Source of the DNA: Escherichia coli | GTDB lineage: Bacteria; Pseudomonadota; Gammaproteobacteria; Enterobacterales; Enterobacteriaceae | Direction: 5' to 3' (one strand) | DNA length: 4,783 bases | Assembly (NCBI RefSeq): GCF_003334815.1 | Contig: NZ_QOWO01000075.1 | Shown here: positions 201-4,783 of the stretch, piece by piece | How positions within the stretch are numbered: the first letter of the stretch is position 1 | Layout: every line of letters begins with the position of its first letter | Program-made: the position numbers and the translations under genes | Notes under the pieces: model-generated | What the model was told of the DNA's origin: nothing | What the model saw: the letters and a program-made list of their open reading frames with translations, nothing else | Database searches by the model: none

Positions 201-626
201 ATGCAGTATGCGAAACCTGTCACTCTGAACGTTGAAGAGTGCGACCGCCTTTCCTTTCTGCCTTACCTGTTTGGCAACGATTTTCTGTATGCCGAGGCGT
301 ATGTGTACGCGCTGGCGCAAAAAATGATGCCGGAATATCAGGGAGGCTTCTGGCATTTCATCCGCCTGCCGGATGGTGGCGGTTACATGATGCCGGATGG
401 CGACCGTTTTCATCTGGTCAACGGTGAAAACTGGTTTGACCGCACTGTGAGTGCTGATGCCGCAGGTATCATCCTGACTTCCCTTGTGATTAACCGCCAG
501 TTGTGGCTGTACCACGACAGCGGGGATGCGGGACTGACACACCTTTACCGGATGCGTGATGCGCAGTTGTGGAGCCACATTGAATTTCATCCCGAATGTA
601 ACGCGATTTACGCAGCACTGGACTGA
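201..626 (+). CDS. klcA: Anti-restriction protein, ArdB/KlcA family (141 aa)
   Basis: ATG at 201 preceded by GGAGG (189-193, 7-nt spacer). Translation carries family-typical blocks: [36 protein letters not shown] and C-terminal AIYAALD. The 141-aa length fits this family; the upstream in-frame start at 84 has no RBS and would give a poorly coding GC-rich extension. Confidence 0.85.
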
Positions 627-672: not shown

Positions 673-1092
673 ATGTACTGTACTGTTAAAGAAATTATCC
701 GCGAAGTGCTGAATACAGACGTGCCGGACAGTGAATGTGTTTTTGCCGTGGTGCTGACCCGCGGGGATGTGCGCCACATAGCCCGGGACTGGAACCTGTC
801 AGACGATGAGCTGGAAACCGTCATGCAGCGGCTGGACGATGCTTTTGTATATGGCGCATGTGACAGAGTTGTTTCCGATATTGTCAATGAACTGATGGAG
901 GAAAAGCGCGTAAACCGTCTTGTAACAGTCCCTGCGGTGCTGCTGGAAAAAGTGATGGTGATGGCTGGTAGTGAAATTTATCGCCTCCATGCTGTAGGGA
1001 GCGAGAACGGGGGCGACGGTGACGCATTTGTCAGGGAAGAACGTGAGATTATGCGGGTAATGCGTCAGGCACTGGACGGGGAGAACGGGTAA
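673..1092 (+). CDS. Hypothetical leading-region protein, 139 aa (possibly DUF1380-like; assignment from memory, unverified)
   Basis: ORF with GGAG at 661-664 and 8-nt spacer to ATG 673. Acidic protein with coding-like composition; same strand and tight spacing with neighbours. Stop TAA 1090-1092 overlaps the next start. Confidence 0.75.
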   Translation: MYCTVKEIIREVLNTDVPDSECVFAVVLTRGDVRHIARDWNLSDDELETVMQRLDDAFVYGACDRVVSDIVNELMEEKRVNRLVTVPAVLLEKVMVMAGSEIYRLHAVGSENGGDGDAFVREEREIMRVMRQALDGENG

Positions 1093-1283
1093 TGAATATC
1101 AGCACGGAAACCCGCGAAATTCTGCGTAATTACAGGGCCGTGATTAATGCGCGGCGTCGTGAAATGGGGCAGAAACCGCTCACCACCGCGCAGATTGTTG
1201 ATGAAATCTGTGATTTTGTGGCGAATCAGCAGGCGGTTTTCCTCGGTGGTCACTACATCCTTCAGGGCAGCAGGCACAGGTGA
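1092..1283 (+). CDS. Small hypothetical protein, 63 aa, translationally coupled to the upstream ORF
   Basis: TAATG stop/start overlap at 1090-1094; GGGGAG at 1078-1083 with 8-nt spacer. No recognisable motif; called on context and coupling only. Confidence 0.5.
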   Translation: MNISTETREILRNYRAVINARRREMGQKPLTTAQIVDEICDFVANQQAVFLGGHYILQGSRHR

Positions 1284-1310: not shown

Positions 1311-1448
1311 TCAGCCCGCGCGAAAACCCCTGGCAGGCTGGCGCCTGCCGGAAGGGATGCGGGCCACGCTGGCGCGTCGCCCGTTACCCTTCCCGTTTGT
1401 GATGTGTCCGGAATGTTTTTTCCTGATGTTATGTTTCTGTGGTTACTG

Positions 1449-1477
1449 TTCTTCTTCTTCTTCTTCCTCTTCTTTCC
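1449..1477. repeat. Polypyrimidine simple-repeat tract containing (TTC)6 at 1449-1466
   Basis: Direct reading: ttcttcttcttcttcttc followed by ctcttctttcc; pyrimidine-only on the + strand for 29 nt. Confidence 0.9.
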
Positions 1478-1837
1478 GTTCCTCTCCTGTTTATGCCTTT
1501 TCCGGGCGTCCCCCTGGCGGGGCGGGCTGTCGTGAACGGAGCCAGCGGAGCTGTCTCCGCCCTGGCGGGCTTCCATCCCTGACGCAAAACCCCGGGTTTG
1601 CAGCGACCGGAACGGTCGCGCCACCCTTGTCGCGCCGTGGCCTGCGCTCCTGGCATCCCGGCAAAAAGACGCCGGGATGTAAGGCGCAACGCCGTTTCGC
1701 GCACGCGCTCTCCGTCGTTGCGGCGGGTCCCTGCTCATTGCCTGCCGGGTGCCACACACCCGTATGAGTCCCTGTCGCCGGGGGCTGATACAGCCACAAC
1801 CTGCCGCACTGACTGTCCAGGGTAAATGAACAGCCCA

Positions 1838-1873
1838 CAAAATTTTTTACCCAGAACCCGGTAAAAAATTTTG
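1838..1873. other. Perfect 14-bp AT-rich inverted repeat (CAAAATTTTTTACC / GGTAAAAAATTTTG) with 8-nt spacer
   Basis: Arms 1838-1851 and 1860-1873 are exact reverse complements. Flanked by a further imperfect pairing, 1813-1821 with 1882-1890 (8 of 9), suggesting a longer imperfect hairpin centred near 1855. Confidence 0.8.
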
Positions 1874-2252
1874 CGTTCTGCCCAGGACAGGTGCGTCAGG
1901 CCGTGGCAGTGATGCCCCTTGCGGCGAAGGTTCTCAAACGGGTGAAGTTCATACCACAGGGAATACAGCAGCAGGTTCCCGCGAAACGTCAAAACCGCGG
2001 CTCCCGAAACTCAACGGGTGATGTTCTTTAAAAATCAGGATTTATTTCAGGCTCCGGCAATACGCATTTATGTGTTCTGTCAGCATCCTGCTGACAGGTA
2101 ATGAGAACGCAGGAACAGAAGGAGGAATACACCGGAAAACGTCAGATGCAGATATGAAAAAAGCAGGTCAGGGACCTGCTTAATCCACGCCGAAGAGACT
2201 GTGCAACCAGTCTTTAAGGCACTGTTACCAACCTGTCATAAGGTATCCATTT

Positions 2253-2483
2253 ATGACTGTAAGCATTGTTTCACCTTCCGCAGCGGCTGTAAAGCCCCGT
2301 CGTCATACCCGTTTCAGACGCGAAGACATCCCCGCGCCGGAAATTGACCCCGTGCTGAAAGCCTTCGGGCGACACATTGCCCGGAGTTTTCGCCGGGGGC
2401 GTGGTGTACACATCCCCGCCATGAAAAACACGGCTTTCGGGCAGGTGCTCCGCACACTCGAACTGAAACGCGCTTTTAACTGA
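2253..2483 (+). CDS. Small arginine-rich hypothetical protein, 76 aa (possibly DUF905/UPF0401-like; unverified)
   Basis: ATG 2253 with weak SD (AAGG 2240-2243, 9-nt spacer); first ORF downstream of the structured element; co-oriented. Many R/K residues (KPRRHTRFRRED, RSFRRGRG). No motif recognised with certainty. Confidence 0.55.
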   Translation: MTVSIVSPSAAAVKPRRHTRFRREDIPAPEIDPVLKAFGRHIARSFRRGRGVHIPAMKNTAFGQVLRTLELKRAFN

Positions 2484-2534: not shown

Positions 2535-3896
2535 ATGACATTATCAGCAATCACCATGACCGCCCCGGAAGCCGCCAGCCCGGTGCAGATGTACCGCGCG
2601 ACCTACTCACCGGATGATAACAAACTGCGCCTGTATGCCGCGTCACGTCTTGACCCGGAGACGTATAAAAAAGTGCATGATGCCGGTTTTCGCTGGGCAC
2701 CAAAACAGGCGCTGTTTGTCGCGCCAGCCTGGACACCGGGCCGGGAAGACGTGCTCCTCTCACTTGCCGGAGAGATTGAGGATGAAGACAGCACGCTCGC
2801 TGAACGTCAGGAAGCACGGGCGGAGCGGTTTACCGGATACAGCGGAAAGCGGGCCAGTGAATCCGCACAGGCACTTGATGAAGTGGAAAGACTGGCCGCG
2901 ATGATCCCGCCCGGTCAGCCCATTCTTGTGGGGCATCACAGCGAACGCCGCGCCCGTCGTGATGCGCAGCGTATTGAAAACGGCATGAAACGTGCCGTGA
3001 TGCTCTTTGAACGTGCGGAATACTGGGAAGAACGGGCGCGGTCGGCACTGCTTCACGCGAAGTATAAAGAACGCCCGGACGTTCGCTGGCGTCGTATCAA
3101 AAAAATCGAAGCGGATTTGCGCAAGGCTGAAAAGACCATCGCACAGTCGCAGAAATATCTGACGATGTGGCGGGCTGAATCGCTGGATCTGAATATGGCA
3201 AAACTCATCAGCAGTCATGACCATATCAGCGCCTGTTTCCCGCTGGATACGTATCCGCGCCCGGCAGAAAAAAGCCAGTATGAAGGGAGCCGGTCGTTAT
3301 GGTCGGCCCTGGATGATGACATCATCACCACGGAGCAGGCCCGCGAAATTGCGATCCGCTGTCATGAACGGCAGATTCAGCATCAGCAACGCTGGGTTAA
3401 CCACTATCAGAACCGCCTGATCTATGAGCGTGCCATGCTGGACGAAAGCGGCGGCGTGGTTACCCGGACACAGGATTTTGAGCCGGGCGGACAGGTTTTC
3501 AGCCGGGGCGAGTGGCTGACCATCATCCGCGTGAACAAAAGCAACGGGGCGGTGAGTTCAGTCACAACGCCGAATTACAGTTTTCTCGGGTACAGCGGCA
3601 CGATGAAAGTGACGCCCGATCGCATCACGGACTACAAAGCACCATCGGCAGAAGAGGCTGCCGTCGCCAGTCAGGCCGCGAAGCGTCCGCCGGTAGTCAA
3701 CTATCCGGGGGAAGGTTTCCGGGAAATGACAAAGGCACAGTGGGCCGCCCTGCCCCGGGACTGTAAGGCCGTGCGCAGTGTGGCAGAGACAGAAGACCAC
3801 GGGGCATACCGCTACCGCCGCACAATGGATAATAATTTCCGCCTGGTGAGTGTGTATATTACCGACATGAAAATCACGGAAATCCCACAGAAATAA
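2535..3896 (+). CDS. Protein of unknown function, 453 aa (possibly DUF3560-type leading-region protein; unverified)
   Basis: Long ORF with RBS AGGAG at 2523-2527 and 7-nt spacer to ATG 2535. Central highly charged, probably helical segment (ERQEARAERF ... RRARRDAQRIENGMKRAVMLFERAEYWEERARSALLHAKYKERPDVRWRRIKKIEADLRKAEKTIAQSQKYL). No catalytic motif recognised by eye. Confidence 0.9.
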   Translation: MTLSAITMTAPEAASPVQMYRATYSPDDNKLRLYAASRLDPETYKKVHDAGFRWAPKQALFVAPAWTPGREDVLLSLAGEIEDEDSTLAERQEARAERFTGYSGKRASESAQALDEVERLAAMIPPGQPILVGHHSERRARRDAQRIENGMKRAVMLFERAEYWEERARSALLHAKYKERPDVRWRRIKKIEADLRKAEKTIAQSQKYLTMWRAESLDLNMAKLISSHDHISACFPLDTYPRPAEKSQYEGSRSLWSALDDDIITTEQAREIAIRCHERQIQHQQRWVNHYQNRLIYERAMLDESGGVVTRTQDFEPGGQVFSRGEWLTIIRVNKSNGAVSSVTTPNYSFLGYSGTMKVTPDRITDYKAPSAEEAAVASQAAKRPPVVNYPGEGFREMTKAQWAALPRDCKAVRSVAETEDHGAYRYRRTMDNNFRLVSVYITDMKITEIPQK

Positions 3897-3942: not shown

Positions 3943-4506
3943 ATGCACAGTCAGTTAAGAGAACGTATCCGGCTGCTGCGCGCAAGGCTGGATAACGCCG
4001 CACCGGTTGCTGAAATCCGGGCTGAATCTCAGCTTTTTGTGACACCTGCCCCGGTCTGTGATCGCCTGGTGACGCTGGCGGAAATCAGCAATCGTGATCA
4101 CATTCTGGAACCCTCTGCCGGCACCGGGGCCATACTGCGGGCGATTCGGGATACCGCGCCGGAGGCCATGTGTGATGCGGTGGAGAGCAACAGCGGGCTG
4201 GTCCGGTATCTGCGGGAAAATTTTAACGGTGTCAGGGTACAGTGTGGCGACTTCATGGAATGGCAGCCGGTGCAGTATTACAGCCGGATTATCATGAATC
4301 CGCCGTTCAGCCACGGGCAGGATATCCGGCATATCCTGCGGGCCTTTTCCCTGCTGCGTCCGGGTGGCGTTCTGGTCGCCGTCTGTCTGAACGGGCCACG
4401 CCAGCAGGAGAAGCTGTTACCGTTTTCTGACATCCGCGAGGAGCTGCCGCGCGGCACGTTTGCTTATACCCATGTTCCGACGATGATTATTCGTCTGCGC
4501 GCCTGA
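3943..4506 (+). CDS. Orphan SAM-dependent methyltransferase, 187 aa (amino-methyltransferase fold; N6-adenine/N4-cytosine DNA MTase-like, no recognisable target-recognition domain)
   Basis: RBS GGAG 3931-3934 with 8-nt spacer. Motif I (AdoMet binding) ILEPSAGTGAIL near residue 55; motif IV NPPF near residue 119 (IIMNPPFSHGQD). Motif order I then IV and the small size indicate a minimal MTase core. No adjacent restriction endonuclease gene in the window. Confidence 0.85.
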   Translation: MHSQLRERIRLLRARLDNAAPVAEIRAESQLFVTPAPVCDRLVTLAEISNRDHILEPSAGTGAILRAIRDTAPEAMCDAVESNSGLVRYLRENFNGVRVQCGDFMEWQPVQYYSRIIMNPPFSHGQDIRHILRAFSLLRPGGVLVAVCLNGPRQQEKLLPFSDIREELPRGTFAYTHVPTMIIRLRA

Positions 4507-4577
4507 TGACACAGGCAGGCGGGAGGATAAATGCCCGTCTGCCCGTGCCGGGAAAAAGACCGCGCGCCGGTGGCGCT

Positions 4578-4609
4578 GAAAGGGGCCGCGCTGACGCGCC
4601 GCCCCTTTC
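4578..4609 (+). other. GC-rich hairpin downstream of the MTase (13-bp stem with one mismatch, 6-nt loop), contains GCCGCCCC
   Basis: GAAAGGGGCCGCG (4578-4590), loop CTGACG, CGCCGCCCCTTTC (4597-4609). Followed only by a short TTTC, so at best a weak terminator. Confidence 0.5.
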
Positions 4610-4654
4610 ATTGCGCGGACGTTCTGCTGTGGACTTCTGTCTTTTCAGAACGGT

Positions 4655-4783
4655 CATTTGTCTGTTACTGATGATGTTGTTGTTCCTGCTACTGCTACTG
4701 CTACTGTTCTTCTTTTTTCTGCTGCTCTGATTACTGTCTGTTTTGTTGTTCTCCTGCTTATGCCTTTTCCGGGCGTCCCCCTG
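4655..4783 (+). promoter_or_regulatory. Start of a second copy of the Frpo/ssi-like element (truncated by window end)
   Basis: 4751-4783 (ctcctgcttatgccttttccgggcgtccccctg) matches 1484-1516 at 32 of 33 positions. Upstream there are shared ttactgttcttctt and ctgatgtt blocks plus a different simple-repeat tract. Confidence 0.6.
4670..4750. repeat. Compound simple-repeat tract: (GAT)2(GTT)3 at 4670-4684, (CTGCTA)3 at 4686-4703, T-rich pyrimidine run
   Basis: Direct reading of the sequence; differs in unit and copy number from the tract at 1449-1477 in copy 1. Confidence 0.9.

Follow-up and report, generated by a model that had tools for sequence, protein, structure and literature searches.

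Two tandem-repeat tracts beside conserved elements of an IncF leading region

The stretch of Escherichia coli DNA analysed here (the window; 4,783 nt of contig NZ_QOWO01000075.1, assembly GCF_003334815.1) carries two tandem-repeat tracts, each at the head of a copy of a conserved element that we assign to the class-1 single-stranded DNA (ssDNA) promoters called Frpo or ssi. More than 5000 plasmid records match the window, most of them conjugative and mostly from Escherichia, Klebsiella, Salmonella and Shigella, and we assign it to the leading region of an IncF conjugative plasmid. In the closest record, an IncFIA plasmid, the corresponding region lies between the stb partition genes and ssb-psiB-psiA-oriT-traM. 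All leading genes are encoded on the plus strand. Since the origin of transfer (oriT) lies to the right of the window, the minus strand is the strand transferred in conjugation and also the template for the leading genes. The features of the locus are collected in Table 1.

Table 1. Genes, promoter elements and repeat tracts of the window
Feature	Position	Strand	Remarks
klcA/yciB antirestriction gene	201-626	+	
DUF1380 gene	673-1092	+	
63-amino-acid open reading frame (ORF)	1092-1283	+	
Non-coding stretch			970 nt, between the 63- and 76-amino-acid ORFs
GC-rich hairpin GGGCCACGC-TGGC-GCGTCGCCC	1361-1382	+	precedes the copy-1 head
Copy-1 head (type T1)	1404-1490	+	mostly pyrimidine spacer, rich in T and poor in A; A 6%, C 25%, G 16%, T 53%
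TTC array, period 3	1449-1474	+	Tandem Repeats Finder: 8.7 copies, 91% matches
Perfect (TTC)6	1449-1466	+	inside the unbroken 29-nt pyrimidine run 1449-1477; (GAA)n on the transferred minus strand
Core-proximal head part TTTCCGTTCCTCTCCTGTT	1473-1491	+	predicted partner of purine-rich tail 2114-2138
Conserved repeat unit, copy 1	1483-2040	+ coordinates	~545 nt; common to all copies
Left module of conserved repeat	1483-1679		
Part homologous to F ssiD/Frpo	1680-2012		hairpin tip 1831-1880
Purine-rich, T-poor tail	2090-2165	+	A 45%, T 11%; Shine-Dalgarno-like string AGAAGGAGGA at 2117-2126
76-amino-acid ORF	2253-2483	+	
DUF3560/ydbA	2535-3896	+	
S-adenosylmethionine-dependent methyltransferase	3943-4506	+	
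Second non-coding stretch			after the methyltransferase gene, continuing past the window end
GC-rich hairpin before copy-2 head	4577-4610	+	15-nt arms, 93% complementary
Copy-2 head (type T2)	4640-4757	+	spacer rich in T and poor in A; A 10%, C 22%, G 19%, T 49%
(GAT)2(GTT)3	4670-4684	+	precedes the CTGCTA array
CTGCTA array, period 6	4686-4706	+	Tandem Repeats Finder: 3.5 copies, 100% matches
TGTTCTTC after the CTGCTA array, then T6 run	T6 4713-4718	+	within tract 4670-4718
Conserved repeat, start of copy 2 (ssb-side Frpo)	4750-4783	+	cut off by the window end

The tracts were checked by direct reading and with Tandem Repeats Finder; the two methods agreed, and the program reported only two arrays in the window, TTC and CTGCTA. 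A first, sequence-only reading of the window had described copy 1 as headed by (TTC)6 within a 29-nt polypyrimidine run and copy 2 as headed by (GAT)2(GTT)3, a CTGCTA array and T-runs. Both descriptions were confirmed, as was the common conserved sequence into which both tracts lead, TCTCCTG(T/C)TTATGCCTTTTCCGGGCGTCCCCCTG, joined near positions 1483 and 4750. In 3000 first-order Markov simulations of the window, repeats as long as those observed never arose, whether of period 3 (a stretch of 18) or of period 6 (21), and no pyrimidine/purine run reached 29. The two tracts had also been called different, which is true of the units that have expanded but not of the whole sequence, as ACTGTTCTTCTT occurs in both and segments 1432-1516 and 4699-4783 are 71% identical. 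From this alignment we regard the tracts as diverged homologues with different units expanded.

The reference plasmid has three copies of the conserved ~545-nt unit, which precede ydbA, ssb and yeiA. The ssiD sequence of plasmid F (D90178; listed in the supplement of Samuel et al. 2024, PMC11541004) aligns to the minus strand of 1680-2012 with 78% identity over 340 nt (E = 8e-70). The functional Frpo2 construct, a fragment that drove expression of an anti-CRISPR gene in conjugation (Samuel et al. 2024, PMC11541004), aligns to 1768-2023 with 92% identity. The minus-strand DNA of the core is predicted to fold with a minimum free energy (MFE) of -197.8 kcal/mol (z = -9.9 compared with shuffled sequences) and with its tip at 1831-1880. 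The core therefore has the leading-region position and orientation, the ssiD/Frpo homology and the stable transferred-strand stem-loop of a class-1 promoter, and we identify the element copies as Frpo/ssi repeats of the minus strand, with predicted promoter activity. A consensus scan of the core for -35 and -10 sequences found no convincing hexamers, and the start site could not be placed confidently from the sequence. Hairpins of the Frpo type recruit RNA polymerase on the incoming single strand, which leads to the leading genes being expressed early and transiently (PMC9849209, PMC11541004, PMC12672017). In F-like resistance plasmids the first genes expressed on entry, including those for anti-restriction, SOS inhibition and SSB, are driven by such promoters.

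The tracts had been placed immediately upstream of a conserved regulatory core. This is correct with respect to the conserved repeat, but not with respect to the known promoter hairpin: tract 1449-1477 is 203 nt away from the segment homologous to F ssiD and precedes the first nucleotide of the functional construct by 291 nt, and so lies outside the sequence that promoter function requires or that suffices for it.

An exact 27-mer of the left module was also encountered on short contigs (L011-L013) filed under Streptomyces morookaense, an Oscillibacter metagenome-assembled genome and a Collinsella metagenome-assembled genome, most likely contamination or mis-binned enterobacterial plasmid DNA. 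A scan of species-representative genomes for a conserved 27-mer returned only four stray contigs and was uninformative.

Repeat number, head composition and predicted folding

A 141-nt query spanning the tract gave 3041 plasmid matches, only four of them at ≥99% identity, and the full-length matches were 132-168 nt long. For a comparison of repeat numbers, 10 complete plasmids and ~120 metagenome loci containing an exact core 26-mer were used, which together provided 171 core copies. Three types of head were distinguished: (i) T1, before ydbA, with (TTC)n, n = 2-12 (28 distinct alleles in 43 copies), (ii) T2, before ssb, with (CTGCTA)n, n = 1-9 (37 in 49), and (iii) T3, before yeiA/ygeA, with an 18-mer, n = 1-2 (19 in 64). 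Even in groups of copies with identical flanks of 180 nt or more, n took values such as {3,4,5,6}, {5,6,12}, {1,4,5,6,8}, {4,5,6,9} and {6,7,9}. Repeat number thus changes faster than point substitutions accrue. Among the complete plasmids alone, arrays ranged from (TTC)3 to (TTC)12. The distribution of n was broad and unimodal rather than two-state. The spacer is therefore hypervariable between plasmids, as the sequence-only reading had proposed, and the identical tract lengths that would have spoken against the proposal were not seen in related plasmids.

The head is 85-120 nt long, adjoins the ~545-nt conserved repeat and begins ~120 nt past the upstream stop codon, directly after a hairpin conserved across IncF, IncF(K) and IncI1. 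Heads of E. coli IncF plasmids contain 6-12% A and 46-53% T. Pyrimidine-rich heads, with 5-7% A and 44-45% T, also occur in a Klebsiella IncF(K) plasmid, whose promoter hairpin shows no more than ~70% identity. The heads of IncI1 ColIb-P9 are shorter and without repeats; they are T-rich and A-poor, but this skew is weak in one of the two copies examined (A 13%, T 38%). The upstream GC-rich hairpin, with consensus GGGCCGCGC-TGAC-GCGCCGCCC, was found in E. coli IncF, Klebsiella IncF(K) and IncI1 (window 1361-1382 and 4577-4610; L136 3840-3862; L135 8730-8760), and its conservation indicates that the ancestral repeat unit starts further upstream than the tract. At the other end, the copy-1 tail (2090-2165) has its homologue in the ribosome-binding region that copy 2 provides for ssb. 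The layout shared across lineages thus consists of a GC hairpin, a T-rich and A-poor head, a structured core and a purine-rich tail. The composition of the head therefore appears to be constrained, while its length and exact sequence do not.

Three of the five A-poor, T-rich regions in 25 kb of plasmid locus L001 are Frpo heads. Another region of that locus, the GT-rich and A-poor segment 4010-4181, was rejected as a head: it resembles one in composition only, is a different kind of sequence and adjoins the partition genes stbA/stbB, of which it possibly represents centromere-like repeats.

The influence of repeat number on folding was modelled with the minus strand of 1284-2060 carrying (TTC)n, where n was 0, 2, 3, 4, 5, 6, 8, 12 or 20. 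The predicted MFE structure of the core was identical across (TTC)0-20, and the MFE shifted by less than 1 kcal/mol. On the transferred strand the predicted pairing probability of the repeat was 0.01-0.13, compared with 0.67 for the core. Similarly, varying (CTGCTA)n from 0 to 12 left unaltered the predicted pairing of the ssb Shine-Dalgarno (SD) sequence, that is, of its ribosome-binding site (RBS), in RNA. These predictions and the distance of the tract from the hairpin speak against the suggestion that phase or length variation affects promoter folding.

Contingency repeats of Haemophilus, Neisseria and Campylobacter lie within ORFs, where the unit length is not divisible by 3, or in the spacer that separates the -35 from the -10 sequence, and a change of one unit toggles expression. 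The Frpo heads have hypermutable repeats beside a regulatory element and a high diversity of alleles among otherwise identical flanks, as would be expected if repeat number were selected to vary, tuning or switching the adjacent ssDNA promoter. The geometry of a one-unit switch is nevertheless absent: the repeat units are multiples of 3, and the tract lies in no conserved ORF and not within a -35/-10 spacer, which leaves no on/off logic. Moreover, 203-291 nt separate the tract from the promoter hairpin, no structural consequence of copy number is predicted, and n is not two-state. We therefore consider a contingency locus very unlikely.

The reading that we favour, with somewhat better than even confidence, is that the tracts are slippage-prone repeats in a spacer of constrained composition, and that their length is near-neutral noise rather than a phase-variation switch. 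According to this proposal, units of 3, 6 and 18 nt would expand and contract by replication slippage, at a pace exceeding that of point substitution in the flanks. Situated outside the promoter hairpin and single-stranded in the predicted fold of the transferred strand, the tracts would leave that fold unaltered, and the spacer before every IncF class-1 Frpo/ssi copy would be constrained in composition but free in length and exact sequence.

Several points weigh against this proposal. The folds are thermodynamic models of naked DNA, in which neither SSB nor RNA polymerase is taken into account. Short-read metagenome assemblies are the source of most alleles, although n has the same range in the complete plasmids and the arrays are shorter than one sequencing read. 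The conserved composition implies that the head has some function. Finally, the lengths that are congruent modulo 3 and the single register that runs through all three head types (both described below) might be due to selection and not to the units having arisen from triplets.

The distances from a fixed anchor upstream to the core are nearly all congruent modulo 3: 13 of 14 distinct lengths in T1, 12 of 15 in T2 (two of the three exceptions look like mis-anchored copies) and all three in T3. On the minus strand, every allele of all three head types has one register with 55-77% A-R-N triplets, whose position relative to the core is always the same. This is most simply read as the result of triplet slippage having built the tracts, so that the units of 6 and 18 nt inherited the register. 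The A-R-N periodicity is absent from IncI1 heads and becomes ambiguous once the repeats are collapsed. This minus-strand register resembles the distal-face motif of Hfq; it is probably a by-product of triplet slippage.

The same regularities would be expected of a small ORF, either a Leu/Phe-rich sense product such as MMLLF(LL)nLFFFFLLL or a minus-strand product with a Lys/Asn/Ser-rich tail after a conserved MEARQGGD... start. ORFs are indeed open on both strands, and the length classes and the minus-strand frame would fit a coding function. However, DNA poor in A or in T is free of stop codons simply because of its composition, the candidate starts are not preceded by an SD sequence, and the ORFs over the tracts have no NCBIfam or Pfam match. 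Frameshift alleles were present in 3 of 39 T1 copies and in one T2 copy, 1-nt indels in the core disrupt the long minus-strand ORF between copies, and the C-termini differ wholly between copies. Given the missing family matches and SD sequences, the frameshift alleles and the core indels, a coding role for the tracts was rejected as scarcely credible. If the tracts are neutral microsatellites, spurious ORFs there can be ignored by plasmid annotators.

Candidate roles of the pyrimidine-rich head

The conserved composition of the head would be accounted for if the head were kept for pairing, across the Frpo domain, with the SD-bearing, purine-rich tail. Read-through transcripts of the upstream operon, which include the head, would then have a sequestered RBS, whereas Frpo-started transcripts, which do not, would be translatable; the same pairing would close the transferred-strand domain. 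A pyrimidine-rich, A-poor head and a purine-rich, T-poor tail are present on the sense strand at every copy, and full-length folds pair 1473-1491 with 2114-2138 at a probability of 0.7-0.8. In copy 3 of L001, segment 18528-18543 pairs with 19137-19153, the yeiA RBS, at a probability of ~1.0. There, a 16/17 inverted repeat links the head sequence TTTCCTCCTGTTCTGA to the yeiA ribosome-binding region TCAGATACAGGAGGAAA, ~600 nt apart, and this pairing is predicted on the transferred strand (~1.0). The copy-3 duplex is better than those formed by shuffled heads (z = -3.0, p = 0.003). In RNA folds the SD-to-AUG segment has a pairing probability of 0.73-0.84 with the head and 0.45-0.53 without it, and UGUUCUUCUU is predicted to pair with AGAAGGAGA. 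The head is also the predicted partner of the SD sequence in three Klebsiella copies (0.51-0.69) and one IncI1 copy (0.69).

Several results speak against this reading, however. For T1 and T2, composition-matched shuffled heads pair equally well (z ~ -0.8). Any unstructured CU-rich stretch is predicted to pair with a free SD. No compensatory changes were observed between T3 head variants and their tails, head/tail chimeras are frequent, and pairing was predicted neither with the actual RBS of the gene that follows copy 1 nor with IncI1 ssb. Specific head/tail complementarity was therefore rejected as a general feature, being significant for copy 3 only and showing no covariation. On these models we regard an anti-SD role of the head as an unlikely, tentative explanation. 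A long-range sequestration of an RBS occurs on the same plasmids in hok mRNA, through fbi/tac pairing.

The head might instead act at the level of transcription, as unstructured, U-rich RNA with more C than G that would serve for Rho loading, aided by the upstream GC hairpin. Transcription of the upstream operon would be stopped before it enters the next ssDNA promoter and unfolds or occludes it. Sites of Rho loading (rut sites) are defined by composition, so their length and sequence can drift. The place of the head, ~120 nt after the upstream stop codon and directly behind a conserved hairpin, is suitable for such a role, as is the predicted unpaired state of the repeats. The heads are among the 78-nt windows with the highest C/G ratio (ranks 2 and 6 in the window, 2 and 8 in L001, and 3, 4 and 7 in the Klebsiella locus), with values of 2.2-4.0 for T1, T3 and Klebsiella heads and 1.6 for T2, and the copy-3 hairpin scores as terminator-like. 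On the other hand, C barely exceeds G in T2 (22% and 19%), G exceeds C in one IncI1 head, and the feature common to all lineages is a T-rich, A-poor rather than a C-rich, G-poor composition. An intrinsic terminator was discarded as a general explanation, since only one of the four scanned hairpin regions fits the pattern. A terminator or insulator function is, in our judgement, possible but doubtful. Both this role and pairing with the tail are compatible with a neutral repeat number.

We also considered a direct effect of the purine-rich ssDNA, (GAA)n or (AGCAGT)n, on the transferred strand. It could be a poor substrate for SSB or RecA, an (A-R-N)n site for Hfq or, in T1 only, a homopurine mirror-repeat triplex that slows complementary-strand synthesis just before the promoter. 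The strong (A-R-N)n periodicity of the minus strand would agree with this, and T1 places a homopurine mirror repeat of 29 nt on the template from which the complementary strand is made. The periodicity is, however, inherent to triplet repeats and missing from IncI1 heads. With regard to H-DNA, T1 has the 29-nt R·Y run with (GAA)n symmetry, whereas sense-strand purines interrupt T2 and T3, which are not homopurine, so that the property is not shared. At another promoter of the leading region, conversion is known to meet structural roadblocks, but the one described is ssp2 and not a class-1 promoter (bioRxiv 10.64898/2026.01.09.698686). An effect of this kind is highly improbable.

If several of these roles were combined, the head would be a functional module of the cassette, an anti-SD or closing strand and possibly also a Rho-loading site, and transcripts running in from the upstream operon on double-stranded plasmid DNA would be terminated or translationally silent. 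We give this combination a small chance. Were it true, only head-less Frpo transcripts made on incoming ssDNA would express ssb, psiB and the anti-defence genes, providing a second, RNA-level lock that confines leading-gene expression to the moment of entry. In that case (TTC)n would be a reiterated anti-SD for AGAAGGAGG, and repeats would be tolerated since many registers work. For the spacer that we favour, of neutral length and constrained composition, there is a modest chance of an insulating or translational-masking role. A head that insulates the promoter or masks the downstream RBS would be part of the reason why leading genes stay silent in the established plasmid.

Recombination, neighbouring features and comparison with known systems

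In at least one-fifth of the classifiable copies, the type of head and the type of tail (that is, the downstream gene) were mixed. The chimeras comprised a T1 head with an ssb tail (7), T2 with a yeiA tail (7), T3 with a copy-1 tail (5) and T3 with an ssb tail (4); some of those on metagenome contigs may be assembly artefacts. In the complete plasmid NZ_MW800638.1 (L004 10140-10697), a T1 head with (TTC)12 is followed directly by an ssb-type tail and ssb, and the ydbA-methyltransferase segment is missing, an arrangement consistent with recombination between Frpo copies 1 and 2. The repeats had been suspected of being a recombination hotspot between copies. Head/tail chimeras and inter-copy deletions are indeed common, but the substrate is the ~545-nt conserved core, and the dissimilar repeats are markers of the events rather than their substrate. 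For IncI plasmids, recombination through such a core is already described (PMC3817090), and for F it was anticipated (PMC9849209).

Two other rearrangements were noted. In NZ_CP035849.1 (L006 ~13000-13052), a deletion fuses the methyltransferase ORF (…CACGGGCAGGATA) to (CTGCTA)7, and the annotated gene reads through the repeat; this plasmid shows a deletion endpoint inside the microsatellite. In NZ_CP103744.1 (L005 10343-12010), a group II intron (ltrA) lies between the methyltransferase gene and ssb, the usual place of Frpo copy 2, and a single core copy was detected at this locus.

The Rfam family AS-pc01 ('antisense to pHK01_035') matched the minus strand at 2158-2258 with 68.7 bits (E = 5e-11), below the gathering score of 79. 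The match ends at a terminator-like hairpin of the minus strand (2181-2161), short of the Frpo core, and probably represents an antisense RNA facing the start of the 76-amino-acid ORF at 2253. It was the sole match of the Rfam scan, in which no family covered the repeat tract or the Frpo core. The first 200 nt, upstream of klcA, are C/T-rich and GC-rich and probably correspond to the class-2 ssDNA promoter (ssp2/'Frpo3') of papers from 2025-26. A 17-nt direct repeat is common to positions 86-102 of the window and 1891-1907 of the Frpo hairpin (GTGCGTCAGGCTGCGGC / GTGCGTCAGGCCGTGGC), and may be a common promoter or start-site motif.

No mention of the pyrimidine-rich head or its repeats was found in the searchable literature on Frpo and leading regions, which is not proof of absence, and a description of these loci as a typing marker was likewise not found. 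As far as that literature shows, the hypervariable head would be an undescribed detail of a known element. Earlier work on Frpo centred on the hairpin; here each promoter repeat has in addition a flank whose composition is conserved and whose length is hypervariable. Having many alleles, the (TTC)n and (CTGCTA)n arrays are markers by which otherwise near-identical IncF plasmids could be told apart when outbreaks are traced, and the type of head marks which Frpo copies have recombined.

In their plasmid context, orientation, multiple copies and stable transferred-strand hairpin, the elements resemble the class-1 Frpo/ssi promoters of IncF and IncI1 plasmids (Masai and Arai 1997; PMC9849209, PMC11541004, PMC12672017); the repeat tract is not part of those promoters as they were defined or tested. 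The tracts are comparable to the loci used in typing by variable numbers of tandem repeats (VNTR) or multilocus VNTR analysis, which are multi-allelic intergenic repeat polymorphisms, with at least eight (TTC)n and at least nine (CTGCTA)n alleles among close replicons. They differ in being located on a conjugative plasmid, with two or three paralogous loci per plasmid. With the contingency loci of Haemophilus, Neisseria and Campylobacter they share short repeats that change much faster than point mutation and lie near expression signals, but their units of 3, 6 and 18 nt lie neither in a conserved ORF nor in a promoter spacer, and the predicted promoter fold does not depend on them. The predicted occlusion of a downstream SD by a distant segment, in the longer form of the transcript only, recalls the fbi/tac pairing of hok, except that here it is a prediction alone, is sequence-specific for copy 3 only and shows no covariation. 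Finally, the heads resemble rut regions and intergenic insulators in general, as untranslated, unstructured, pyrimidine-rich segments of at least 80 nt after the end of an operon, tolerant of changes in sequence and length and mostly with more C than G. Their excess of C over G is, in contrast, weak in T2 and reversed in one IncI1 head, and a role of Rho at these sites is putative.

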